From positions 64,001 through 128,000 of IMG/VR virus record IMGVR_UViG_3300019850_000189: DNA of 64,000 nucleotides; one strand, given 5' to 3'. Below the pieces are notes generated by a model, which did no database searches, had not been told where the DNA came from, and worked only from the letters and a program-made list of their open reading frames with translations. Of this stretch, positions 18,567 through 63,801 are shown in pieces. How positions within the stretch are numbered: position 1 is the first letter of the stretch; every line of letters begins with the position of its first letter. This DNA comes from a virus. The position numbers were made by a program, and so were the translations under genes.

Positions 18567-18860
18567 TTGGGAGTATATGACTGCTATGGTAATTGTCAAC
18601 TTAAAATTGGTCCATGTGAATTAGATGTTTATGATATAGGAGATAAAGTTCCAATCACAGATGGAATATATTTGGATTATGGTGGAGCAGTTGTTATTAA
18701 AGATGGAATATTTGTCGCAGAGTTCAAAGAGTTAACCGATAAATATGGCGGTTCTATAGATATAGAACAAGTGGCCAATGAAAGGAATCCATTATATGAA
18801 TTGACACAACAAGTTACTAAAAACGCCAAGAAACAGACGGGCCCTACAGATAAATTATAG
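18567..18860 (+). CDS. hypothetical protein
   Basis: GGAGG RBS, TTG start. Confidence 0.6.
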   Translation: MGVYDCYGNCQLKIGPCELDVYDIGDKVPITDGIYLDYGGAVVIKDGIFVAEFKELTDKYGGSIDIEQVANERNPLYELTQQVTKNAKKQTGPTDKL

Positions 18861-18898
18861 ATAGTAGGATTGTAGTTGATGCTGGCGAATCCGGATGA

Positions 18899-18970
18899 TC
18901 CTCTCTGATGAAATGGGTATCATAGTTGACCGTTAATCAACCTTTTATGGTTCGAATCCATAGGGAGGAG
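18899..18970 (+). tRNA. tRNA-Asn(GTT)
   Basis: TCCTCTC/GGGAGGA; GTTGA CC GTT AA TCAAC. Confidence 0.9.
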
Positions 18971-19192
18971 AATGAGAAGAAACACAAAAAAATGTCCTAA
19001 ATGCGGTCGCCTTGTGGGCTTGAGAAATTATAAGAGAAAAAGAAAAGCAAGGTCGGGCAGTAAAACAAATAGAAGTATATAGAGTCCTTAGGGATCAGGG
19101 AATGATTGTTCGCATGAGAGGAGTGTTGATAGTATTTGAGAAAATATCAAAATTTGTGCCAAAAAATAGGTTAATGTAGCATATATACAAAT

Positions 19193-19427
19193 ATGGGCAG
19201 GTTCCGTTATAATGCACTAGCAGAGGAATAAGCGCGGCGGTTCGGAAAGACGAACTTAGATTATCAGGTGACTGCCGGCAATAGTTCGGCGCGCCATCTA
19301 ATGCGAGGTTTAATTTAAAACCTCATCACGGCGATTTAATTGATTTAGGCCTGTGGCTGCGAATGCCAATAATCGAAACCAATAGAGATCGCAAAGCGAA
19401 TAATCCGTTGGAAGTCCGCCTGCCCAT
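19193..19427 (+). ncRNA. unidentified structured RNA (~230 nt)
   Basis: Terminal 9-bp stem ATGGGCAGG/CCTGCCCAT enclosing several hairpins (GTTCG-GAAA-GACGAAC, GCCG/CGGC, GAGGTTT/AAACCTC, TCGC-AAA-GCGA); GC-rich against an AT-rich background. Confidence 0.6.
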
Positions 19428-19446
19428 TATTATATTAGGATATGAT

Positions 19447-37930: not shown

Positions 37931-38848
37931 ATGCATGTTTTTTATCACTGCAGAGATCTTGACGGGCGTTGTTCCGGCGCAATCGCCAGATACTATCATG
38001 AGAATACAAAAAAAAATAGTAAAGTTGTAATGCACCCATTTGATTATGGATATTCATTTCCATTTGATGAAATAACTGACGGCGAGAAAGTATGGATGCT
38101 TGATGTATCTACCAATCCATATGATATAATGTTAGAAATTAATAATAGATATGATCTCACGGTTATAGATCATCATGCATCATTTATAAATTCTGGAATC
38201 CCTGAGAAATTAAATGGAAAGTTTGAAATCGGCAAGGCTGCCTGCGAACTTACTTGGAAGCACTGTTATGGTTATGGTTCTGGGATGCCAAGATTGGTTC
38301 ACTTATTAGGACGCTATGATGTCTGGGATAAATCAGATCTAGATATTTGGAACAAATACATTCTTCCAACACAGATGGGCGTACAACTGAAAAATGTGGA
38401 TCCAAAAGATGGTTTCGAATTCTGGAAGATGTATTTTGATGATCATTTTGGAACAGGCGACACGGGTATTGTTGAAACTACGATAAATAAACAGGGTTCT
38501 ATTGTTTTAGCTTATCAATATCAAATGGACAAAAAAAATGTGAATCTGAATTCTTTCGCTGCTAAGTTTTTAGATTTTAATGCCATATGTTTAAACTCGG
38601 CGCGTTCCAATTCACAAGTTTTCGAATCCGTATGGGATCCTAATAAATATGATCTTATGTTTTTCTGGAGTAGCGTAAAGGGAGAAAGATACACATGCTC
38701 TATAATTACCGATAAACCCAATATAGATGTCAGTAAGATAGCAAGTGCCTTCGGCGGAGGTGGCCACAAGCAGGCGGCAGGATTCCAATGCAAAAATGTA
38801 GTGATTTCTTCAGAATCAGAAGGTAAAAGAATTATCATAAATATGTAA
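37931..38848 (+). CDS. DHH/DHHA1-family phosphoesterase
   Basis: FYHCRDLDGRCSG, WMLD, VIDHHAS, GGGGHKQAAGF. Confidence 0.88.
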   Translation: MHVFYHCRDLDGRCSGAIARYYHENTKKNSKVVMHPFDYGYSFPFDEITDGEKVWMLDVSTNPYDIMLEINNRYDLTVIDHHASFINSGIPEKLNGKFEIGKAACELTWKHCYGYGSGMPRLVHLLGRYDVWDKSDLDIWNKYILPTQMGVQLKNVDPKDGFEFWKMYFDDHFGTGDTGIVETTINKQGSIVLAYQYQMDKKNVNLNSFAAKFLDFNAICLNSARSNSQVFESVWDPNKYDLMFFWSSVKGERYTCSIITDKPNIDVSKIASAFGGGGHKQAAGFQCKNVVISSESEGKRIIINM

Positions 38849-41148: not shown

Positions 41149-41220
41149 GTGCCCGTAGCTCAGTTGGTGTAGCTGGAGGCTCTAACCCTTCGTGTGTGGG
41201 TTCGAATCCCACCGGGCACT
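41149..41220 (+). tRNA. amber-suppressor tRNA (anticodon CTA)
   Basis: GTGCCCG/CGGGCAC acceptor; GGAGG CT CTA AC CCTTC; GTGGG TTCGAAT CCCAC. Confidence 0.8.
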
Positions 41221-44174: not shown

Positions 44175-44519
44175 GGGGGTGAATTGGCTTCGACAGAGAG
44201 TAACTGACACTAAAATTTATGCCAAGGTTCGCCAGGCCTTGTAAAACAGGGCGACTTATTAAAATAAATGCTGATGAAAATTTAGCACTTGCCGCTTAAT
44301 TAGCGGCTGTTCTTCTATTATTTGTTTTTGGTAGTAGAAAGAGCATCAGAAACAAAAACTCGTCAACTTACTCAAACTTGTAGGTAAGATGATTAAATTA
44401 TCCAAGATATTCTTTCTTTGGTCGCTTGAGAACCAAGATAGAAGAAAATAATCTCAAGATAAGCATATAAAAAGTAGTGGATTTCTCTCTGGACTCCGGA
44501 TCGTTACCGGACACCTCCA
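44175..44519 (+). ncRNA. ssrA: tmRNA; tag peptide (A)ADENLALAA* at 44270-44299
   Basis: 5' GGGGGTGAATTGGCTTCGAC, 3' GGACTCCGGATCGTTACCGGACACCTCCA with G3-U70; tag ORF ending LALAA*. Confidence 0.92.
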
Positions 44520-48835: not shown

Positions 48836-50134
48836 GTGAGGCACGCATTGAAACAATCCCCAGAATTCAGTTACGAGTTAGAACTTGAAATATTAAACTA
48901 TTCATTACATGATCGATCTTTTTGGCTTTTGATGGTGAATTCTTTACAACCGCATTATTTTGATAACCGCATAACAAAATCTATTTTCGTTGCTTTTCGT
49001 GTATCTTTTGAGAAGTATAATAAACTGCCGGGCCGCTCAGTTCTTCATGACCGCCTAAAGAAGCTTGGTTTGGATGATAGTCTACAGCAAAAAGCTTTTG
49101 ATGTTGTTTATGATACTGATATGTCTCAAAAGGATAAACAATACCTGTTAGATGAAGTAAAAAGCTTTGCTAAAAAAGCCAGGATGCGCGATGCGCTTTA
49201 TAAATCAGTTGATTTACTTCAAAAGGATCAATTTGATGAAATAAGCGAATTGGTTAAGGACGCTTTGTTATTCAATGTAGATATAAATTTGGGCATTGAT
49301 ATATGGAAAATAGATGAACGATATGAAAAAATAAATCAATTACATCTAGATAAGGTCACCACAGGCTGGAGCCTTTTGGATAAAATTCTGGGAGGAGGTG
49401 TGGAGAAAAAGGGTTTATTTTGTTTTGGTGCTCCTGCCGGAATCGGCAAATCTATTTTTCTTGTCAATATAGGCGCAAATGCTTTGCTTGCTAATTACAA
49501 TGTCGCTGTCTATACCCTTGAAATTTCTGAAGAGCGATTAAGTATGCGATATGATGCCTGCCTGAGTCGAATTCCTTCGCACGAATTAAGAAGTCAGATT
49601 CCCGAATTAAAGAATAAAATGAATGAAATAAAAGCTCGTACCAATGGTAAGCTGTTTATTAAAGAATTCGCAACAAAGCAGGCATCAGTAAATACTATTA
49701 GGGCGCATTTAGAAAAATTGATCGTTTATGAAGAATTTGTGCCTGATATAATAATAGTTGATTATGCAGATATACTCCGGCCATCACACAGATATGGTTC
49801 CAAATACGAAGAGCTTGGCAACATATATGAAGATCTGCGCGGTCTTGCTGTTGAGATGAAAGTTCCAATCGTAACAGCATCTCAGACAAATCGTGAATCA
49901 ATGAGCAAAGACGGCGGGACAAAAGAAATCATAAGCGGAGCCCTAATTGCTGACTCTATCATAAAGTTGCAGATATTAGATTTCTTTGCCACAATAAGCC
50001 AAAGTATTGGAGATAGAGGTCAAAACAAATTAAACTTATTCATCGCCAAAAATAGAAATGGTGAAGCCAGTAATACAATTGAATTCAGCATTGATTATGC
50101 CACATTTCGTTTAACACAATTGTTAAGCTCATAA
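48836..50134 (+). CDS. DnaB-family (T4 gp41-like) replicative helicase
   Basis: Walker A APAGIGKS, YTLEISE, IIVDYADIL, TASQTNR, KNRNG. Confidence 0.92.
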   Translation: MRHALKQSPEFSYELELEILNYSLHDRSFWLLMVNSLQPHYFDNRITKSIFVAFRVSFEKYNKLPGRSVLHDRLKKLGLDDSLQQKAFDVVYDTDMSQKDKQYLLDEVKSFAKKARMRDALYKSVDLLQKDQFDEISELVKDALLFNVDINLGIDIWKIDERYEKINQLHLDKVTTGWSLLDKILGGGVEKKGLFCFGAPAGIGKSIFLVNIGANALLANYNVAVYTLEISEERLSMRYDACLSRIPSHELRSQIPELKNKMNEIKARTNGKLFIKEFATKQASVNTIRAHLEKLIVYEEFVPDIIIVDYADILRPSHRYGSKYEELGNIYEDLRGLAVEMKVPIVTASQTNRESMSKDGGTKEIISGALIADSIIKLQILDFFATISQSIGDRGQNKLNLFIAKNRNGEASNTIEFSIDYATFRLTQLLSS

Positions 50135-50215
50135 AAAAAATTAAAAAACGTGACAAGATAATATCAAAAAGAATATTAAAAAAGATATTCCAAAAACTAG
50201 TAAGGCAAATATCAC

Positions 50216-50244
50216 TTTACAATTTCTTCGGACTGTGGTATAGT
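50216..50244 (+). promoter_or_regulatory. sigma70-type promoter
   Basis: TTTACA-17-TATAGT. Confidence 0.7.
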
Positions 50245-50250
50245 ATAGTT

Positions 50251-50316
50251 ACGGCAATCTTGGAGATGTCCTGTAAAAAGGGATAGGTCATGGTTCGACT
50301 CCTGGCATTGCCGCAC
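50251..50316 (+). ncRNA. small tRNA-like RNA lacking a D-arm
   Basis: CGGCAAT/ATTGCCG stem, GTCCT-GTAAAAA-GGGAT hairpin, TTCGACT T-loop in an imperfect stem; begins at the expected +1 of the promoter. Confidence 0.45.
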
Positions 50317-50338
50317 TCTTAAAGGGGGAATTAATTCA

Positions 50339-50494
50339 ATGCATGATTATAATGAGAGGAAAGCTAAAGTTCTGGCCAAGCTTATTGTCAAATGGCGAAA
50401 AGAGGGCAAAGTTGAATTAGCTGAATTTCTCAGAGAAAGATTAGAAAAAAGAGGCGATTTGTCTTACGAAGAAATAGATGCTTTTGGCAAGTAA
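50339..50494 (+). CDS. small hypothetical protein (51 aa)
   Basis: GGGGGA RBS; MHDYNERKAKVLAKL...FGK*. Confidence 0.5.
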   Translation: MHDYNERKAKVLAKLIVKWRKEGKVELAEFLRERLEKRGDLSYEEIDAFGK

Positions 50495-50593
50495 ATGTCT
50501 GAACAGGTTAACAGCCCCGGCAAGAGTGTTTACCGTGAGAAGCTTTCCAAACTCTTGCCTCTTTTATTTGTCCTTGAAACATATATAGGTTAA

Positions 50594-51490
50594 ATGGATC
50601 ATTTATTGACTAATATTAAGATGCGCAACAGAACGATTGTAGATTTGCTGGCTACCAAATATCAAAACGCATCTGATATTAAAAACAGAAATATCCAGCT
50701 CTTTGTTGATTCAATCTCCAGATCAGTTTACTACCAGATCAAAGGTTTAGTGGCAAATACTAAATTTATACTTAAAGATGCCAACTTTTTTTGGGACCAA
50801 ATACTTGAGGTTAAAAAACCATCTCATTATATACTTGATCATTATAACAATTATTGGACGGAGAACGATTGTATTTTTTTCGACAAAATGTATAACCTTA
50901 TAGATACAAAGATCGGAAATGAGTATATACGCGCGTTTCTCTTTTCTGCTTTAATTGAGCTTATGATAAATCAGTCAATTTATGGTAGATTTAATATTTC
51001 CACTGAAGGATATATGTCAGAGAAAGAATCGTTAACAAAAGATAAATTTTTATTTATCATTGAAGACTTAAAGAATAAGATAAAAAGTGGCGGGAATGTG
51101 ACAGTAGTCAATATGCCAATAGAAAAATTCATAAAAAGTATAAGCAATGCCGGAATTATTTATTTTGAAACCCCAACTAGAAATGTCTTCTATGACTACC
51201 ACCCAATATATGATGTTTTCGAAAATTACAACAAGGGCACATTTATTGATAAAAAGTTACACATTTCACAGGAAATAAAAAATAAAGCTGATCATTATAT
51301 ATATCGCGGTGACAAGTTTATTAAAAGATGGTCCAATTTGTTATATTATGTTATGGATGTTGATTTTGAATATCTGATCTTCGGCCTGAATAACAAAATG
51401 GATATAGAGAAAGAGTGGCTTCATGAAAAACTTGCCAAGTATGGCAGAGCAGAATATATAAAACCTAATTATGTAATGTTAAATAAATAA
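50594..51490 (+). CDS. hypothetical protein, possibly a degenerate adenine-MTase fold
   Basis: VTVVNMPIEKFIKSISNAGIIYFETP parallels N.D...F.....D.IY.DPPY of D12-class MTases but lacks the DPPY motif. Confidence 0.4.
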   Translation: MDHLLTNIKMRNRTIVDLLATKYQNASDIKNRNIQLFVDSISRSVYYQIKGLVANTKFILKDANFFWDQILEVKKPSHYILDHYNNYWTENDCIFFDKMYNLIDTKIGNEYIRAFLFSALIELMINQSIYGRFNISTEGYMSEKESLTKDKFLFIIEDLKNKIKSGGNVTVVNMPIEKFIKSISNAGIIYFETPTRNVFYDYHPIYDVFENYNKGTFIDKKLHISQEIKNKADHYIYRGDKFIKRWSNLLYYVMDVDFEYLIFGLNNKMDIEKEWLHEKLAKYGRAEYIKPNYVMLNK

Positions 51491-55461: not shown

Positions 55462-55487
55462 TACAACTTTAAGAAGGAGTGATTATC

Positions 55488-55991
55488 ATGAGACCATCTT
55501 GGACCGAGCTATTTTTAAATATAACGCGTCTTGTTGCGCAGCGAAGCACATGTGCGCGCCTGAAGGTGGGCGCCGTCCTGGTAAAAGATAATCGTATCAT
55601 TTCTATGGGATACAATGGTGTTCCGCAAGGGCTTGAACACTGCGAAGATCACTTCAGGAAAATATACAATAACAAGGTTAGAATTCAAGACATGTCATGG
55701 GAAGAATATATAGCATCGCCCTTTTTTATGCAGGAACATCACGAATTTTCTACTCATAATGAAATACATGCGGAAACAAATGCGCTAATGTTTGCAGCGT
55801 ATAATGGTGTTAGTACAAGAGGAGCCGATATTTACGTATCATATACGCCGTGCATCCATTGTTCAAAACAAATTCTGCAAGCTGGTATCAACCATGTTTA
55901 TTATGATAAGCCGTATGATCGCGATATGACTGCGATAAAATTTCTTGAAGAGAACGATATAGCGTGCCAGCAAATTGGGGATGACAGTTGA
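55488..55991 (+). CDS. dCMP deaminase
   Basis: RSTCARLKVGAVLV, GYNG, HAETNAL, PCIHC. Confidence 0.92.
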   Translation: MRPSWTELFLNITRLVAQRSTCARLKVGAVLVKDNRIISMGYNGVPQGLEHCEDHFRKIYNNKVRIQDMSWEEYIASPFFMQEHHEFSTHNEIHAETNALMFAAYNGVSTRGADIYVSYTPCIHCSKQILQAGINHVYYDKPYDRDMTAIKFLEENDIACQQIGDDS

Positions 55992-57868
55992 TTATTGACA
56001 AAAACCGATTTAAAACAATTATGGATATTCTGCAAGGCTGGTATTGGGAAATTGACGAAAATAACGTTTATGTTTATTCCGCCGGCAAATGCAAAGAATT
56101 ATTGGGAGTTGAGCCAGAATATGTCTTGGGAAAAACTATATTTGATTTTATGGATGATGAAGAGGCGATAAGAATAGAAAAAGTTCTCAAACAATTCCGA
56201 GACGAGAGAAAAGATTTTACATCATTAGAACACGAGCTCATTAACAAAAATGGTTCCGTGATTACAGTTGAGAGCTGGTGCGCACCCATTTTTAATGATA
56301 AAGGTAAATTCGATGGATATTCTGGAATTGATTATAATATTACAGAACGTAAAAAGTGGGAAGAGGGCTTTCGCGAGCGTGAGAGAAAATTAAGTGTAAT
56401 AATTGCCAGTATAAGCGATGCAGTTATTGCGGTTGATTCGAAAGGGAATATCATTTTATTGAATCAGCGCGCTGAAGACATTTTAGGATGGCAACAGGCA
56501 GATGTTGTTGGCAAGAATCATGATGCTATAATTAATTTATTTGATTGCAATAACGATATTATGAACAGTCCATTGAAACAGGTTTTAGAAACGGCCAAAA
56601 TGGTCACGATAAAAGATAATACCACTTTAATTGCTAAAAATGGTAAAAATATAATGGTGGGCGCTGTTGCATCTCCTGTAAAATTGGATGGCAATATTAT
56701 TGGCGCCGTTATGATTTTTCGTGATGTTAGTATGCAAAAGATGGTAGAAATAGAACTATCTAAAACACAGAAACTCGATGCCGTTGGGGTCCTGGCTGGC
56801 GGCATGGCTCATGATTTCAATAATATATTAACAGCGATAAGTGGCCATATGGAAATTGCCAGGATGTTATCTCATGAGGATAAAGTTGTTGAACATCTCA
56901 GAGAAGCGCTTGGAGCCTGCAAGAGGGCAAAAAGCGTTACGCAACAATTACTCACATTTTCAAAAGGCGGTATGCCACTTCCCAAGCCTACTTCAGTTTC
57001 CAGCGTTATTAAAGATACAGCAAAATTTATTTTAACTGGTACAAATGTCGCAATTGAATATAATATAGATGAAAATATATCTGCTATTGATGTTGATGCC
57101 GAACAAATTTCGGAAGTGATACAAAATATAATAATAAATGCAATTCAGGCAATGCCAGATGGTGGGGTAATGCAACTAAGTGCACAGAATATTTATACTC
57201 CATTCAGAAATCTATGTGATAACTATGTGTCACCAGGTAAGTATGTTAAAATATCAATATCTGATACAGGTAGAGGAATTCCTAAAGAGCATCTATCCAA
57301 GATTTTCGATCCTTACTTTACCACCAAAAGCACCGGGAATGGTCTTGGCCTGTCAGTCGCATATTCTATTATTAAGAAGCATGGGGGATGTATATACGCC
57401 GATTCGAAAATTGGCCACGGCTCTATTTTCAATATATATCTTCCATCAACTGATAAAAAGGCAGAAATAGTAAGCGTCAAGAAGCCTATTAGAGGTACCG
57501 GCCGAATACTGTTTCTGGATGATGAATATTCCGTGAGAGAAACGGGCAAGGTATTGATTGAAAGTTTGGGATACACTGTAGATGTCGTTCGGAATGGTAG
57601 ATTGGCTGTTGAGCACTATAAAAAAGCACTTGAAGATGGGCAACCATTCAGAGCTATTATTGCGGATCTTACAATTCCAGGTGGTATGGGCGGCGTTGAA
57701 GCTATAAAAGAAATCAAGAAAGTAGATCAAAATGTAAAAGCTATCGTTTCAAGTGGCTATTCTACCTCTAATGTCATGAGCGAATACAGGAGCTACGGAT
57801 TTTCGGGGGCTCTCAGAAAGCCATATGATCTCGCAGAACTATCCAAAGCACTTCACGATGTGACATAA
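55988..57868 (+). CDS. cytoplasmic hybrid sensor histidine kinase (PAS-PAS-HisKA-HATPase-REC)
   Basis: Two PAS domains, H-box LAGGMAHDFNNILT, QNIIINA, ISDTGRGI, FDPYFTTK, GLGLS, receiver ILFLDDE...ADLTIPGGMGG...KP; no TM segments. Confidence 0.93.
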   Translation: MIIDKNRFKTIMDILQGWYWEIDENNVYVYSAGKCKELLGVEPEYVLGKTIFDFMDDEEAIRIEKVLKQFRDERKDFTSLEHELINKNGSVITVESWCAPIFNDKGKFDGYSGIDYNITERKKWEEGFRERERKLSVIIASISDAVIAVDSKGNIILLNQRAEDILGWQQADVVGKNHDAIINLFDCNNDIMNSPLKQVLETAKMVTIKDNTTLIAKNGKNIMVGAVASPVKLDGNIIGAVMIFRDVSMQKMVEIELSKTQKLDAVGVLAGGMAHDFNNILTAISGHMEIARMLSHEDKVVEHLREALGACKRAKSVTQQLLTFSKGGMPLPKPTSVSSVIKDTAKFILTGTNVAIEYNIDENISAIDVDAEQISEVIQNIIINAIQAMPDGGVMQLSAQNIYTPFRNLCDNYVSPGKYVKISISDTGRGIPKEHLSKIFDPYFTTKSTGNGLGLSVAYSIIKKHGGCIYADSKIGHGSIFNIYLPSTDKKAEIVSVKKPIRGTGRILFLDDEYSVRETGKVLIESLGYTVDVVRNGRLAVEHYKKALEDGQPFRAIIADLTIPGGMGGVEAIKEIKKVDQNVKAIVSSGYSTSNVMSEYRSYGFSGALRKPYDLAELSKALHDVT

Positions 57869-57881
57869 CATATATATTAAT

Positions 57882-60521
57882 ATGAGAAAAAAATTATATG
57901 AACATCTGAAAGAAAAGGGTATAGATGATGCCAAACATCGCGAACGTCTTGAAATGGAACTTAAAGAATTTAAAAAGTATGAAACTATTAATCACACTAA
58001 ATTGATAGTTGAAATAGACAATGGTGCGGAACCAAGCAAAAGGATTCTGATATGGTATTTGTTGGGGTATATCCATAATGACCCTATTGATAAAATTCCG
58101 GAAAATATAGTGGTACCTGGAAAGGCGCCAGATATAGACCTGGATTTTGAAGATGCCGAAAGAGGCAGAGTTATTGATTATATTAAGCGTCGATTCGGAT
58201 ATAATAATGTTGCTCAGGTTTGCAATGTGGTTACCTACTCTATCAAATCTGCTTTTCAAGATGCCGCCCGTATATATGGCATCCCGGCCCAAAAGGCTAT
58301 TTCCATATCCAAAAACATCAATGATGATAACTGGAATCAAAGCGATGCTTATACGCGATATCCTGAAATTTTTAAGTTCGCAGAACATCTCCTCGGTCAA
58401 ATGCGAAATTATGGCAGACACGCCGCGGCAATCATAATAACAGATAAACCAGTTCAGAAATATATACCATGTCAATATAATAAAGATGATGATATTCTGC
58501 TGGCCGAATTTACCGGTGCAGCTATTCAAGATATTAAATTATTAAAACTTGATATACTCGGGCTTTCAACTTTAAAAATTATGAAAGACACCATCGAACA
58601 TATCAAAGAACGCCATAATAAGGAAATATCATTAGGAGATATAGATTTTAACGACCTATCTGTTTTTAAGTTATTCAGTCACGGTTTAACTACCTCTATT
58701 TTCCAATTTGAAAGTCCATCTATGAAGGGTTATCTGCAGAAGCTTAAACCGAAAGAGCTAGAAGATATAGTAGTAATGAATGCTCTTTTTAGACCAGGCG
58801 CTATTCCAATTATTAATAATTATATTAAAAGAAAGCATGGCAAAGAAAAAATAGAATACGGGCACTCTGTATTAGAAAAAGTTTTAAAACCAACTTTTGG
58901 TCTTCTGGTATTCCAGGAAGAAACTATTATGATAGCTCATCTTGCATCCGGAATAAGCTTAGGTAGAGCTGATATGCTGCGCCGCTATATGGAAAAATGG
59001 AATTCCAAATATAAGAATGATATTAAGGGAAAGAAAAAATGGGAATCAGAATTTTTTCAAGGTTGCCAGAAGCAAGGCTTGAATTCAAAGGAATCAAAAT
59101 ATATTTGGGATTACCTGATTAAACAAACCGGATACCAATTCAATCGCTGCGTGTCTGGAGACTGCATCATCGATGCCGATACATCTAACAAATGGCGGCC
59201 TACTATTGGTGAGATGTATCGTATTAAAAATGATACTAAATATGCCAAAGAAACAAATCATTACCCGTTAATGAAACGATATTGTGGTAAAAAGGGCTAC
59301 GGTAAAAGTTATTCATTGTGTGAAGATGGACTTTTACGACTAAACAATATAGTAGATATCTATTATGAAGGTGACCGCGAAGTATTTGAAATTCTTCTGG
59401 AAGATGGTAAGAAAATAGAAGTGACAGGCAATCATAACTTTCCACTCCCAAATGGCCAAAAACTTAATATAGATAATGGGCTGAAGGCTGGGGACCATCT
59501 CTATGTTAACGAAGGATATAAGAAGAGACCCAAAGGACAAAAAGTCAATGAGCCAACCTTGAGACAAATTGTATCAATCAAAAGCGTAGGGATCAAGGAT
59601 ACGTACAATATAGAAATGGCAGCTCCTAATCACACTCTATCTATTAATGGCATTATAACTTCTAATTCTCATGCTCTTTCATATGCCGTCATCGCATATC
59701 AAACGGCATGGCTGAAGGTACATTATCCTGTTGAATTCATGTGTGCATCTCTCAATTCAGATAAAACCCCTATTGACAAGCTCACAGCAGAATGCGCACA
59801 GTTGGGGATTAAGGTGCTATACCCTAATATAAATAAGAGTAAAATAGGATTTAGTATTGTGGATGATAGAACCATTATTTATGGATTGAGCAGTGTTAAA
59901 AACTGTGGCGAGGTTCCGGCGCAATGGATAACTGCGCATGCGCCTTACGAAAGTGTTACCGAGTTTTTTACAAAGCTCAAAGATGATAAATTTGGAACAA
60001 AGGTGAATAAAAGAGTATTGGACAGTCTCATTCTATCCGGCGCATTTAGCGACCTTTATAAAAATACTAAAACATTATTTAATAATTATAATGAGTGGCG
60101 GAAGAAATGGGGCAAGACTGATTTTGAAACATACATAAAAGGCAAAGAAGTTGAAGACTATAATGATGATGAAAAATCGAATTTCCTTCAGGATTTACTA
60201 AGTATCGATACATCCATGGCATTATTTGAGAAGAAAAGCAAAGAAATTAATCAACTTAGGCAATTACTTGGAAAAGGATATATAATTGGGATTATTACGG
60301 ATTTTGTCCGAAAACGCGACAGAAACGGAAATATGATGGCTTTTGTGAGCATAAGAGATGGCAATGGCATCAGACGATATCCTCTTTTCGCCAGGCAATT
60401 TGCGAATAATAGTAAAAATTTGATTAAAAATAAAATATTAGCATTTAAAATGTCTAATATGAGAGATGGAGATCGCTTGATAACAAGTATCATGCAACCG
60501 GATACATCAATCAATGGGTAA
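57882..60521 (+). CDS. dnaE: DnaE C-terminal part (palm/fingers/HhH/OB) with a mini-intein
   Basis: PDIDLDF, GRHAAA, KLDILGL, FQFES, LFRPG, LVFQEE, FNR/SHA, YGLSSVKNCG, DRNGNMMAFVSI. Confidence 0.92.
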   Translation: MRKKLYEHLKEKGIDDAKHRERLEMELKEFKKYETINHTKLIVEIDNGAEPSKRILIWYLLGYIHNDPIDKIPENIVVPGKAPDIDLDFEDAERGRVIDYIKRRFGYNNVAQVCNVVTYSIKSAFQDAARIYGIPAQKAISISKNINDDNWNQSDAYTRYPEIFKFAEHLLGQMRNYGRHAAAIIITDKPVQKYIPCQYNKDDDILLAEFTGAAIQDIKLLKLDILGLSTLKIMKDTIEHIKERHNKEISLGDIDFNDLSVFKLFSHGLTTSIFQFESPSMKGYLQKLKPKELEDIVVMNALFRPGAIPIINNYIKRKHGKEKIEYGHSVLEKVLKPTFGLLVFQEETIMIAHLASGISLGRADMLRRYMEKWNSKYKNDIKGKKKWESEFFQGCQKQGLNSKESKYIWDYLIKQTGYQFNRCVSGDCIIDADTSNKWRPTIGEMYRIKNDTKYAKETNHYPLMKRYCGKKGYGKSYSLCEDGLLRLNNIVDIYYEGDREVFEILLEDGKKIEVTGNHNFPLPNGQKLNIDNGLKAGDHLYVNEGYKKRPKGQKVNEPTLRQIVSIKSVGIKDTYNIEMAAPNHTLSINGIITSNSHALSYAVIAYQTAWLKVHYPVEFMCASLNSDKTPIDKLTAECAQLGIKVLYPNINKSKIGFSIVDDRTIIYGLSSVKNCGEVPAQWITAHAPYESVTEFFTKLKDDKFGTKVNKRVLDSLILSGAFSDLYKNTKTLFNNYNEWRKKWGKTDFETYIKGKEVEDYNDDEKSNFLQDLLSIDTSMALFEKKSKEINQLRQLLGKGYIIGIITDFVRKRDRNGNMMAFVSIRDGNGIRRYPLFARQFANNSKNLIKNKILAFKMSNMRDGDRLITSIMQPDTSING
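59148..59666 (+). mobile_element. 173-aa mini-intein (no endonuclease)
   Basis: Starts CVSGDC, ends DTYNIEMAAPNHTLSINGIITSN followed by Ser; removal restores YQFNR-SHALSY. Confidence 0.9.
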
Positions 60522-60542: not shown

Positions 60543-60848
60543 GTGATTTTTTGTTCAGCAGAAATGAACGAAAATAAATATAAGCGAAACTCTAAAAAAT
60601 TGATGGATATAATCTATGAGCATCGGGCTTCATATTTGTTGTATGAGAATAAATTTCAGAAAACTCCTGAACACTGTGCATGCGATGAATGTCTCGCTTT
60701 CATTGAAGAAAAAATGAACAAGTTTAATATAGATCAAAAGGAATTTTTCGATAATTGGAAAAAGGAATTTATCAGAGATGTCAAACTTCATGCTGCACCA
60801 ACAAAAACAGGCAAAGCAAAAGTATTATTGGATGGGGAAAATTCATGA
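60543..60848 (+). CDS. hypothetical protein
   Basis: 101 aa ORF. Confidence 0.5.
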   Translation: MIFCSAEMNENKYKRNSKKLMDIIYEHRASYLLYENKFQKTPEHCACDECLAFIEEKMNKFNIDQKEFFDNWKKEFIRDVKLHAAPTKTGKAKVLLDGENS

Positions 60849-61201
60849 ATATAATGATTTTGGAAGATTCACCAGAGCGTTGTGAATTCTTTCGAAAATT
60901 TTTGAGCGGCAATGTTCTGTATTTTTATGATAATGCAGAGGCTGCAAAGACGGCCCTGGAAGTTCAAGAATTCGATATGATATTTCTGGACCATGATTTA
61001 GAAGGCCAGGTTTATGTTAATTCTGATTACGAGAACACTGGTTACCAGGTGGCAAAATATATTGCGGATAAAAATATAAAAACTCAAGTAATTATACATA
61101 CGATGAACTATTCCGGAGCCCGTCGAATGCTGTCTGTTTTGCCAAATTCAAAATGGGTCGCTTTTAATCAGCTGTTGGAAGCATATAAAATTGACAGATG
61201 A
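60845..61201 (+). CDS. stand-alone receiver-like protein (cyclic-phosphate-processing receiver family)
   Basis: ILEDSPER...IFLDHDL...NTGYQVA...IIHTMN..GARRM. Confidence 0.7.
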   Translation: MNIMILEDSPERCEFFRKFLSGNVLYFYDNAEAAKTALEVQEFDMIFLDHDLEGQVYVNSDYENTGYQVAKYIADKNIKTQVIIHTMNYSGARRMLSVLPNSKWVAFNQLLEAYKIDR

Positions 61202-61229
61202 GACATATATAAAAGTATATGGATAGTGA

Positions 61230-61418
61230 TTGGAGCGTATTGTGAGTGATAAGAGTGAAGTGGCATTTAGCTGGTTCTATAATCAGGCTGAAAAAAAGAT
61301 TATATTTGTCGGAATGACCGGAAACCAACCGTCTTGGGTTTTGCCTAATAATGAAAAGAAAAGGATAGTGGCCAAAAATCTTCTTAGGAAGTATAATAAT
61401 GACAAAGCAGATAACTAA
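61230..61418 (+). CDS. hypothetical protein
   Basis: 62 aa ORF. Confidence 0.4.
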   Translation: MERIVSDKSEVAFSWFYNQAEKKIIFVGMTGNQPSWVLPNNEKKRIVAKNLLRKYNNDKADN

Positions 61419-61605
61419 AGCGGCTAGGAACTTGCTCAAGACGAATCATATTCAACTTATTAATCAAGCTCCGCATAGAATCACTTTGCGTATTAAAGGC
61501 AAAAATTATATATTGGAACCAGCTGGCACACTCAAGACGGAAGGCTACACTCCAGAAATAAAACGTTTATTGAGAGATGGCATACTGGGAATATATGGTT
61601 CTTGA
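61399..61605 (+). CDS. hypothetical protein
   Basis: 68 aa ORF. Confidence 0.5.
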   Translation: MTKQITKAARNLLKTNHIQLINQAPHRITLRIKGKNYILEPAGTLKTEGYTPEIKRLLRDGILGIYGS

Positions 61606-61933
61606 TAATATCTTTGAAGTAAAAACCGAAGCTATTAAAGCCTTGTTTAAAAATGTTCCAATTAAAATTGTAGAGGCCATCCTATACAAAAAAAAGGAAA
61701 TATGGGAGAATAAGATGAAAATGCCATTTGCCAAAGGCAAAACTATAAAAGACGCTTCTGAAAAGCCTAAAGAAGATACACACATATTAAAGGTGGTTTC
61801 TAACTTCAGGAAATTGTATCAAAAAAAGAATTCTAATGAAACATATATAGAAAGTAAGAAAGAAAAATTAGAGGAGCAAAACAAAAATGAATTCAAGAAG
61901 AACAAACATCGAAAAACTCAGAGAAATGTATGA
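61577..61933 (+). CDS. hypothetical protein
   Basis: 118 aa ORF, start uncertain. Confidence 0.35.
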   Translation: MAYWEYMVLDNIFEVKTEAIKALFKNVPIKIVEAILYKKKEIWENKMKMPFAKGKTIKDASEKPKEDTHILKVVSNFRKLYQKKNSNETYIESKKEKLEEQNKNEFKKNKHRKTQRNV

Positions 61934-62729
61934 GAAGTCTAAGACGAATAGCAACTTTTCAAATAATTTTTGGTATCCTCCCGATGAGGAGAATATAATT
62001 AGAATTCTCCCTCCGCTAGAGGGCAAGGATGTATTTTACAAAGCAACGGGGACCCATAAATTTGGAGACTATTTCTTTTGGTGCCCAAGATTAACGGAAG
62101 GTAAGCGATGCCCAATTTGTGAAGAGAGAAAGCGCAGGTATGAATCTGGCACCGATGTGGATCGCGAAGTTGCCTACAAACTTAAAGGAAAGAAAAAGTA
62201 TATTTACAACATAATAGACCGAAAAGGTGATGATCCTATAAAGGTGCAACAGTATATTACAGGTCCCAAGGTCTGGGAAAAAGTTCTTTCGTATTACTTT
62301 GATGAGGAATATGGAGCTCTAGATGATATAGAAAAGGGCTACGATTTTAAGTTGATTAAAAAAATGATTTCTTCGTCAGAGGGAGAATTTGCCAATTACG
62401 ATGATTCTCGACCAATGAAGACCGCCTCCAAGCTGGCAGATAGCGATGAGGACATTGCGGAGATACTTTCTAATTTGAAAGACCTGGATACAATAATCAA
62501 TCTGAAAGATTACGACACAATGAAAGCCGCTTTGGACCGCTTCCTGGTAGAATACTATAATGCTAGCACTTCTGATAATGAAGAAATAGTTTCCACCCCC
62601 GAGATTAAAACCAAATCAAAGGATAAGAAAAAGCCCGAACCAACACCAACTATCGAAAATGAAGATGAAGCAGATATTGATGATTTTGAAGCCAAGCTGA
62701 TGAAAGAACTCGCTGAAGATGATGAATAA
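61887..62729 (+). CDS. single-stranded DNA-binding protein (T4 gp32-like)
   Basis: FWYP...IRILPP...H...CP...CPICE, NIIDR, GYDFKL, NYDDS, acidic tail. Confidence 0.85.
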   Translation: MNSRRTNIEKLREMYEKSKTNSNFSNNFWYPPDEENIIRILPPLEGKDVFYKATGTHKFGDYFFWCPRLTEGKRCPICEERKRRYESGTDVDREVAYKLKGKKKYIYNIIDRKGDDPIKVQQYITGPKVWEKVLSYYFDEEYGALDDIEKGYDFKLIKKMISSSEGEFANYDDSRPMKTASKLADSDEDIAEILSNLKDLDTIINLKDYDTMKAALDRFLVEYYNASTSDNEEIVSTPEIKTKSKDKKKPEPTPTIENEDEADIDDFEAKLMKELAEDDE

Positions 62730-62758
62730 AGGACAAATTTAGGTCCTAATCCCACCAA

Positions 62759-62785
62759 ATGCCCGGATGTTCCGGGCATTTTTTT
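62759..62785 (+). terminator. intrinsic terminator
   Basis: ATGCCCGGA-TGT-TCCGGGCAT + T run. Confidence 0.8.
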
Positions 62786-62786
62786 A

Positions 62787-62815
62787 TTTACAAAAGTTGT
62801 CTTCTGCTATATAAT
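62787..62815 (+). promoter_or_regulatory. sigma70-type promoter
   Basis: TTTACA-17-TATAAT. Confidence 0.7.
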
Positions 62816-62835
62816 ATTAACAGGAGGTAAACATA

Positions 62836-63801
62836 ATGCCACAGGAACATCAAGTTGAAGTTAAAAAATATATTTTTAGAGCTCGAGTTGGTTCTCACCT
62901 TTATGGACTTAATACTCCAGAATCAGACGAAGATTTTGTGAGCGTATTTATTCCTGGGGAGGATTATATTCTTGGTCTCAAAAATGTGGATGAGATTGAT
63001 CGCTCCACTAAGAAATCAGATGCCAAACGTCGAAATAGTCCAGAAGATATCGACGATAAAGCTTATAATATTCAGAAATTCCTCAAACTTTTAATTAACA
63101 ATAATCCCAACATTGTGGAGATCTTATTTGCTAGGCCCGAAAATATTATAATCTTAGAACCAGAGTTCAAAGAGCTTATCGATAATTATGAAAAAATTGT
63201 CAGCACTCGTGCCTTTTGGACTTTTACTGGTTATGCTTACTCACAGAGAAAGCACCTTATTATAAAGAGCGAGCGTTTCAGAGGTCTCACTGAAGCTGTA
63301 GAATATCTTGAGAGCATTGGTGTTAATCCGCGCGAGATCACTGAGCTTGAATCTTCAGAGCTCAATCATTTTCTTAAGTTCTATAAGGGGGAAAAAGGTA
63401 ATACAGAATTTTTCCACAAAGGAATGCCTCTTGAGCATATTTATAACCGTGTTAAGTCCGAGCTTGATATGTATGGCTATCGGATTAAGGAGCTTAACTT
63501 TACTGGCAAAGGCGGAGAGCTATATGATTCTAAATTCGCTTACCATTTAATTCGGCTTCTCGATGAGGGTAGACAGCTTCTTGAAACAGGCCATATTGAA
63601 TTTCCAATTTCTGGAAAAGCTCGCGATGATATTCTAAAGATCCGAAATAAGGAAGTGCCTTTTGAGGATCTCCTGGAACTTTATGATAAGTATAACTCCG
63701 AAATTAAAAAAATTAATGAGAAATCTCCTATCCGCAAAAAGCCAGATTTTAACTGGGCTAATAAATACCTTGTGAGGATTTTGAAAGAGAGTCTTTTGTG
63801 A
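62836..63801 (+). CDS. RlaP/NrdC.11-like nucleotidyltransferase
   Basis: VGSHLYGLNTPESDED Pol-beta motif, NNPNIVEILF, YDSKFAYHLIRL, LPKKPD-like C-terminal IRKKPD. Confidence 0.85.
   Translation: MPQEHQVEVKKYIFRARVGSHLYGLNTPESDEDFVSVFIPGEDYILGLKNVDEIDRSTKKSDAKRRNSPEDIDDKAYNIQKFLKLLINNNPNIVEILFARPENIIILEPEFKELIDNYEKIVSTRAFWTFTGYAYSQRKHLIIKSERFRGLTEAVEYLESIGVNPREITELESSELNHFLKFYKGEKGNTEFFHKGMPLEHIYNRVKSELDMYGYRIKELNFTGKGGELYDSKFAYHLIRLLDEGRQLLETGHIEFPISGKARDDILKIRNKEVPFEDLLELYDKYNSEIKKINEKSPIRKKPDFNWANKYLVRILKESLL

Follow-up and report, generated by a model that had tools for sequence, protein, structure and literature searches.

Phages that sense the state of the infected cell are known to do so mostly through receptors for small peptides or quorum signals. 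Hybrid histidine kinases such as CckA and RpfC pass phosphoryl groups onward, and normally a hybrid kinase needs a transferase of the Hpt or ChpT type to reach a second receiver. Here we describe a gene for a hybrid histidine kinase with two PAS domains that lies inside the split dnaE gene of a phage. The gene is found in a stretch of 64,000 nucleotides (nt), here called the window, which comprises bases 64001-128000 of the 189,375-bp IMG/VR virus record IMGVR_UViG_3300019850_000189 (labelled G000). The record has a GC content of 35.6% and a completeness of 79% as estimated by CheckV, and it is a phage, as judged from its large terminase, gp32, DnaB helicase, Toprim primase, small sigma factor and array of transfer RNA (tRNA) genes.

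The kinase resembles CckA in its domain order, PAS-PAS-HisKA-HATPase-REC, and in its H-box, AHDFNNxLT, and the NCBIfam model of CckA aligns across amino acids (aa) 70-625 of the protein. The closest solved structure to the kinase core is also from CckA (DHp-CA domain, 5idj, E = 7e-29). At 254.6 and 187.8 bits, the scores of the CckA models stay far below their equivalog cut-offs of 1000 and no equivalog is reached; unlike CckA, moreover, the kinase has no N-terminal membrane anchor and no ChpT-type partner (PF10090), and is encoded by a phage. Trp523 of the cyclic di-GMP (c-di-GMP) site of CckA aligns with a Cys in the kinase, and binding of c-di-GMP is not inferable.

The RpfC-RpfG system of Xanthomonas is alike in that a hybrid HisKA kinase and an intact REC-HD-GYP protein are encoded in one genome. 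The adjacent arrangement of the two, where the REC-HD-GYP gene adjoins that of an Hpt-bearing hybrid kinase, was seen in three viral or proviral records (G019, G022 and G027). In the window, by contrast, the kinase has no Hpt domain, the two genes are 21 kb apart and do not form one operon, and sensing would fall to two soluble PAS domains instead of a membrane-bound sensor.

Among viruses, the nearest precedents are the phoR-type genes of soil viromes (PMC10987575). These encode sensor histidine kinases on phage contigs from metagenomes, keep the ATP-binding motifs and have a ratio of nonsynonymous to synonymous substitution rates (dN/dS) below 1. Those genes encode non-hybrid kinases of the PhoR type involved in phosphate regulation, whereas the window kinase is a PAS hybrid whose gene sits among replication genes, away from any Pho context. 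Histidine kinases are named in a survey of 224 jumbo phages only as unlinked to the divergent receiver family cREC (PMC7824862), and no description of phage hybrid kinases as a class was found in the literature searched. Uncharacterised cellular kinases of the REC-PAS-HisKA-HATPase-REC and multi-PAS types (from Desulfobacterota, Spirochaetota, Methanosarcinales and others) are 40-48% identical over PAS2-REC and have all motifs in common with the phage kinase, and the phage proteins form a clade of their own; the aligned cellular forms of ~635 aa (P0050 and P0074) begin with a receiver in the place of the phage PAS1. As a protein the kinase is ordinary and its family very large; it is the setting that is unusual.

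A complete sensor kinase between two halves of dnaE

All five Pfam domains of the kinase exceed their cut-offs (Table 1). In an alignment that also included the kinases of two further phages and three homologues from cells, the H-box H275-D-F-N-N279 (AHDFNN), the N-box residues N380 and N384, the G1 box D426-x-G428-x-G430, the F-box residues F440 and F444 and the G2 box G450-x-G452-x-G454 were invariant in phage and cellular sequences, as were the acidic pair D511/D512, the acceptor D560, S588 and K611 of the receiver. H275 is invariant in the 6 aligned homologues and in 3/3 phage proteins, and the H-box also fits the phosphatase motif H-E/D-x-x-N/T. By its DHp, CA and receiver features the protein is classified as a class I (HisKA-type) hybrid kinase, with predicted kinase activity. 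No transmembrane segment was found (best 19-residue Kyte-Doolittle score 1.36), and since no 19-residue window is hydrophobic enough for a membrane we regard the kinase as cytoplasmic.

An AlphaFold2 model of aa 1-260 (mean predicted local distance difference test score, pLDDT, 92) shows a pair of PAS folds with a long helix linking them. This tandem model superposes on the corresponding modules of DosP, FixL, NifL and MmoS with template modelling (TM) scores of 0.6-0.73 at ~18% identity. On inspection, without residue-level structural alignment, no proximal His was seen on either of the helices predicted as F-alpha (aa 57-73 and 195-202), and a LOV Cys (NCRFL-type) was not seen in the PAS pair, likewise by inspection alone.

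The kinase gene is the third of four closely spaced genes in the order DnaE-N, dCMP deaminase, kinase and DnaE-C, with 17 nt between the first two, 4 nt shared by deaminase and kinase and 13 nt before DnaE-C. The TTG with which the kinase starts runs into the TGA that ends the deaminase gene, and GGGGA lies 9 nt upstream. Scans of the operon for terminators and promoters gave nothing above shuffled sequences and no convincing terminator. The two flanking genes are the halves of one DnaE, and the split point is identical in the relatives. The initial annotation of this DNA had described an intact, cytoplasmic kinase inside the split dnaE with a start overlapping the deaminase stop, and every detail that we checked was correct. 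It had also named a chimeric assembly among the possible refutations; the deaminase/kinase/DnaE-C junctions recur in independent assemblies from five other samples, and the locus is no chimera.

Taken together, these data make it very probable that the phage keeps a functional sensor kinase and expresses it with its replication genes. Because relatives keep the gene as well, the kinase probably serves the phage to sense the condition of the cell that it infects.

Relatives of the locus and evolution of the kinase

In the close relative L006 (Logan assembly ERR15087767) the kinase is 89% identical, with the same gene order and overlap. A distant lineage, represented by L003, L004 and L005 (SRR3085435, JGI 3300008516 and 3300028837), encodes a 668-aa kinase of 46% identity whose start overlaps the deaminase stop as ATGA. 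Between the lineages the kinase has thus diverged to 46% identity, compared with 63-74% for gp32, DnaE, primase and RlaP. Between the window and L006, dN/dS is 0.27 for the kinase (0.21-0.28 for PAS2, DHp, CA and REC), 0.09-0.10 for DnaE and 0.05 for the primase; the kinase is therefore under purifying selection that is about three times laxer than that on DnaE or primase. Its GC content of ~0.37 is like that of the surroundings.

Among 5.8 billion proteins, thousands of cellular relatives were found at 40-48% identity and the sole closer proteins were two from phages. In an exhaustive profile search of 1.84 billion cluster representatives, those of the phages scored 1275 and 1153 bits, whereas the protein ranked after them reached 726 bits; at E <= 1e-30 the family counts 242,954 such representatives. 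A maximum-likelihood tree of 120 sequences unites the three phage kinases in one clade, with a value of 99 in the Shimodaira-Hasegawa-like approximate likelihood ratio test (SH-aLRT). Inside this clade the kinase is vertically inherited and of single origin, and one capture before the lineages split is the simplest history. The nearest genome matches, at <= 44% identity, are from Spirochaetota, Desulfobacterota, Chloroflexota, Verrucomicrobiota, Acidobacteriota and archaea, and no donor lineage can be named from matches scattered over so many phyla. The closest cellular family members come from many anaerobe-rich phyla, in which paralogues are often numerous.

In a tree with 45 other viral kinases, one branch (SH-aLRT 97) had all viral rows to the same side, as if of common viral origin. 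We rejected this as evidence of such an origin because the cellular rows were selected as the best matches to the window kinase, and because the other viral kinases are 24-31% identical to it and were included without their own cellular relatives.

A nucleotide search with the locus gave 0 matches among 50,697 INPHARED phage records, and DnaE-C reached an identity of at most 33% to isolated phages. Attempts to widen the clade with DnaE-N, a DnaE-C profile, a degenerate DNA pattern for FQFESPSMKGY and a gp32 profile returned only G001, G002, G003 and G008, and the kinase had no match in PADLOC. By tblastn, the kinase matched only bacterial contigs filed as phages in INPHARED, along with sasA of 'Microcystis phage MaAM05' (MW495066.1), which we discounted as a precedent because its neighbours rnhC, coaE and aspS look bacterial.

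Candidate partners in the phage genome

The genome contains one histidine kinase and three receiver-fold domains. The initial annotation suggested that the kinase, a REC-HD-GYP gene and a stand-alone receiver-like gene (at 60845) together may form a phosphorelay of the phage, which would link the redox or metabolic state of the host to the turnover of cyclic dinucleotides. A self-contained multistep relay is not encoded, as no Hpt or ChpT-type transferase is present; Hpt (PF01627) and ChpT-type (PF10090) models had no match at E <= 1 in G000, which is 79% complete, or in its relative G001, with positive controls. No GGDEF domain was found in the genome.

Apart from the receiver of the kinase itself, the REC-HD-GYP phosphodiesterase gene holds the sole canonical receiver and is a candidate phospho-acceptor. 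Its acceptor pocket is intact (E19/D20, D66, T94 and K115), as are the catalytic motifs (H163, H196-D197, H226, H250-H251-E252, G258-Y259-P260 and D279), and most of the pocket, metal and GYP residues are invariant among 18 phage homologues. Orthologues are 95% identical in the close relative L021 and 62% identical in L112, a 191-kb contig of the distant lineage. The order HNH, orf267, REC-HD-GYP, orf106 of the window is kept in both relatives, and at the syntenic site of L112 it reads HNH (83% identical), a 265-aa open reading frame (ORF), REC-HD-GYP and a 104-aa ORF. G001 ends before this site, and its lack of an HD_5 match says nothing on absence. In jumbo phages, the published view of HD-GYP proteins is that they act in counter-defence against cyclic-nucleotide signalling (PMC7824862).

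A gene for a DHH/DHHA1 phosphoesterase is located 2.7 kb downstream of the REC-HD-GYP gene (37931-38848; phrog_4771, E = 3.7e-25, weak in Pfam). Enzymes of the DHH/DHHA1 type degrade pGpG and other short linear oligonucleotides, and this one could complete the degradation started by the HD-GYP protein.

The third receiver fold, encoded by the gene at 60845, is a poor candidate for the partner that the initial annotation saw in it. It matches the cREC family and its Response_reg score of 26.2 bits falls under the cut-off of 30.2. The gene has an ATG that overlaps the upstream stop codon, is conserved in relatives and lies 3 kb from the kinase in both lineages. Its context is one of RNA repair, near gp32 and with RlaP 1.6 kb downstream. 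The authors who defined the cREC family state that histidine-kinase systems never contain it, and predicted that it processes cyclic phosphates in contexts of RNA repair and nicotinamide adenine dinucleotide (NAD) (PMC7824862). Together, cREC, gp32 (61887-62729) and RlaP (62836-63801) make up an RNA-repair-like cluster at 60845-63801. Two further genes of RNA metabolism were observed in the relatives, an RNA ligase (PF09414) near the HD-GYP gene of the distant lineage (L112 11578-12246) and a PTH2-type peptidyl-tRNA hydrolase in the tRNA region of the close relative (L021 5602-6009).

Kinase, REC-HD-GYP and cREC are present in 3/3 known members of the clade. The co-occurrence of kinase and HD-GYP gene in related phages, which the initial annotation had looked to, was thus found, with the latter at a syntenic site.

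Hybrid kinases in other huge phages

The view that such kinases are not normal phage cargo proved overstated. Hybrid kinases with the same H-box type are carried by 44 IMG/VR viral contigs, among them complete phages of 300-500 kb, and the window kinase is matched at E = 1e-79 by phrog_5982, one of the PHROG families of PAS-HK-REC length that have no function assigned. Hybrid PAS kinases are a recurrent and little-described cargo of huge phages. The other kinases of this group (G002, G003, G013, G024, G040, G064, G065 and G070, together with phrog_5982) have the order PAS(-GAF)-HisKA-HATPase-REC on contigs of 230-500 kb and share the H-box type, whereas they differ from the window kinase in sequence (24-31% identity for those among the 44 contigs) and in genomic position, none being inside a split dnaE.

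Relatives of the HD-GYP protein were found on 56 IMG/VR viral contigs. The closest, which include a receiver and are 44-50% identical, are found in phages such as G002 (250 kb) and G003 (388 kb); both of these share the gp32 type of the window phage and encode PAS hybrid kinases of their own. Hybrid kinases are also encoded by G013 (234 kb, PAS-GAF-HK-REC) and G024 (293 kb). Identity to the window kinase is 28% for G002 and 31% for G024. In G002, three ORFs resemble kinases, and the genome further encodes a REC-HD-GYP protein and a receiver that stands alone. Beyond their hybrid kinase, G039, G065 and G070 carry only small stand-alone receivers or a second kinase.

Possible outputs of the kinase

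Our tentative proposal is that the output of the kinase is control of the REC-HD-GYP protein of the phage. The tandem PAS module would bind or sense an intracellular cue of the infected cell, and this input would decide how far the kinase autophosphorylates His275 and how far it works in the phosphatase mode that the H-D-x-x-N motif permits. The phosphoryl group would move from His275 to Asp560 of the kinase itself, and phosphorylation of the REC-HD-GYP protein at Asp66 would be set by the kinase, either directly from His275 or via an Hpt protein of the host. The state of the cell would thereby govern the hydrolysis of cyclic di- or oligonucleotides (c-di-GMP, or signals of the types used by CRISPR and by cyclic-oligonucleotide-based anti-phage signalling systems, CBASS), and cREC would stand outside this path. 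We infer the kinase activity, the cue and every phosphotransfer step, whereas the domain integrity, conservation, purifying selection, single origin in the clade and co-conservation with REC-HD-GYP are observed.

We prefer control of REC-HD-GYP slightly because this protein is the sole canonical acceptor, because it is co-conserved with the kinase, because phages with REC-HD-GYP tend to have kinases and because RpfC/RpfG provides a precedent. The tendency was seen in records at least 85% complete, where a histidine kinase occurs in 6/7 with REC-HD-GYP vs 2/7 with a receiver-less HD-GYP (one-sided Fisher p = 0.05), a contrast between small and phylogenetically non-independent numbers that include some proviruses. 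Several other observations also weigh against the proposal. Some 21 kb separates the two genes in the window, and ~34 kb in the relative; they are found in separate operons and different modules (the replication genes and the tRNA region). Neither the phage nor G001 has an Hpt/ChpT-like transferase. Co-occurrence inside one syntenic clade, where everything is co-inherited, is a weak sign of a functional link. Helix alpha1 of the HD-GYP receiver (S-D-T-M-G-V-L) is unlike that of the kinase's own receiver (Y-S-V-R-E-T-G). An HD-GYP domain is present in just 3/42 searched kinase-bearing viral records, and the hybrid kinase is the sole receiver-containing protein of G040 (358 kb) and G064 (308 kb), both of which are complete; a link to HD-GYP, if it exists, is thus not obligate. 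The specificity residues of alpha1 were also tried as a signal of partnership, and were unusable as this helix varies freely among phage HD-GYPs.

The lone kinases of G040 and G064 imply that such kinases can work without a response regulator of the phage, and this fits a reading that we hold to be somewhat less probable than control of REC-HD-GYP and still a serious possibility, namely that the kinase feeds or drains a two-component pathway of the host via host Hpt proteins or response regulators and so reprograms host regulation. REC-HD-GYP would then be controlled separately, by host kinases or small phospho-donors. The 39/42 kinase-bearing records with no HD-GYP and the missing Hpt of the phage point in the same direction; moreover, the cellular family is enormous and a copy taken from it could join a relay that the host already has, and the fast evolution of the kinase (46% vs 63-74% identity; dN/dS 0.27 vs 0.05-0.10) fits the tracking of changing partners. 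On the other hand, a canonical receiver-output protein is kept in all members of the clade, near-complete phages with REC-HD-GYP usually carry a kinase too, and no host partner can be named. The lone kinases and the lack of Hpt would also suit a self-contained switch or phosphate sink, in which D560 is the only acceptor and the protein acts by conformation, protein binding or as a phosphatase, for which the H-D-x-x-N motif is intact and competent. Nothing speaks directly against such a switch, yet the conserved surface residues of DHp would be superfluous for one acting purely by binding, and characterised kinases of like architecture, such as CckA and RpfC, relay onward; we therefore consider it improbable. 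The gene could also be a mere passenger that does nothing for the phage, whether it was captured recently from bacteria, is in decay or arose by chimeric assembly. Such kinases are typically bacterial, the gap between the DnaE halves takes insertions (see below) and dN/dS is above that of core genes, all of which would fit a passenger. This explanation is largely refuted, and we give it hardly any weight, since the junctions are repeated in independent assemblies, the gene has been kept with its catalytic residues intact while core identity fell to 63-74%, its dN/dS is that of purifying selection, its GC content matches the surroundings and the nearest cellular homologue is just ~45-48% identical.

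If the kinase does control the HD-GYP protein, the two would form a regulated module for counter-defence or c-di-GMP manipulation, and counter-defence would depend on the state of the cell; a kinase aimed at host relays would instead represent a new kind of host takeover. A conserved, complete sensor kinase in a lytic-type replication operon would be a different route to sensing from most of those known in phages, as the phage would use bacterial phosphotransfer itself. The survey suggests that it is not a one-off, and the wider pattern in huge phages is the more interesting lead. Possibly, though we regard this as doubtful, huge phages repeatedly assemble a circuit of their own, where a PAS hybrid kinase reads metabolic or redox state and switches REC-HD-GYP, thus confining the destruction of c-di-GMP or defence-related cyclic nucleotides to the proper stage or host condition. 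The window lineage would then have kept its circuit since divergence to ~65-74% core identity, a notion that is just as doubtful, and the different kinases that accompany REC-HD-GYP in G002 and G003 were probably captured independently. All components are soluble and of known sequence, and control of REC-HD-GYP as well as action on host relays is therefore open to standard phosphotransfer assays.

Features of the locus and neighbouring genes

Table 1. Coordinates, in the window, of the kinase gene, its domains and the genes discussed with it.
Feature	Position	Strand	Evidence or remark
REC-HD-GYP phosphodiesterase gene, 326 aa	34223..35203	+	Response_reg E = 4.8e-19; HD_5 E = 4.3e-31
DnaE-N, 409 aa	54232..55461	+	PHP and DNA_pol3_alpha profile positions 2-98
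dCMP deaminase	55479..55991	+	Pfam dCMP_cyt_deam_1, E = 6.5e-23; phrog_174
Hybrid histidine kinase gene	55988..57868	+	626 aa from TTG
Alternative kinase start (public gene call)	ATG 56021	+	gives 615 aa
PAS1 (aa 29-114)	56072..56329	+	Pfam PAS_3, E = 2e-12
PAS2 (aa 135-247)	56390..56728	+	Pfam PAS, E = 1.3e-22
HisKA/DHp (aa 269-327), phospho-acceptor His275 in HDFNN	56792..56968	+	Pfam HisKA 31.0 bits, cut-off 26.9
HATPase_c (aa 370-487) with N, G1, F and G2 boxes	57095..57448	+	E = 1.2e-21
C-terminal Response_reg (aa 507-622)	57506..57853	+	E = 5e-15
DnaE-C, 879 aa	57882..60521	+	DNA_pol3_alpha profile positions 100-260, finger domain, HHH
cREC gene, 118 aa, divergent receiver fold	60845..61201	+	cREC_REC (PF20274) 48.3 bits, cut-off 27

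The gap in the split dnaE behaves as a hot spot for insertions. In the distant lineage (L003, L004 and L005) nine small ORFs are found between DnaE-N and the deaminase; those at 7148-9392 of L004 encode 52-126 aa and have no Pfam matches. DnaE-C of the window has an insert of 170 aa (aa 426-595; nt 59157-59666) between finger and HHH, which is present in the relative with the 89% identical kinase and missing from the 702-aa orthologue of L004. It matches Pfam Intein_splicing weakly and under the cut-off (E = 1.5e-4), and is probably a mini-intein. Because the nine ORFs and the DnaE-C insert differ between the lineages, the split of dnaE is old, with a gap that tolerates insertions.

In the relatives, a gene with a FecR domain (anti-sigma-like) lies between DnaB and primase (L004 16-717; L006 654-1358), near a small protein with sigma-70 region 2. 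The window holds just ~460 nt at this position (50134-50594), and the FecR gene may be missing. L006 also has a tubulin-family (PF00091) gene at 18595-19435, ~9 kb downstream of the kinase; the part of the genome that matches this locus falls past the end of the window.

Further upstream, an array of 36 tRNA genes extends over 14638-44519 of the window and covers nearly every amino acid. It includes a tRNA with a CTA anticodon at 41149-41220, an amber suppressor that ARAGORN labels 'Pyl', and in the whole genome 46/265 long ORFs have a TAG stop. A phage transfer-messenger RNA is encoded at 44175-44519, with the tag ADENLALAA.

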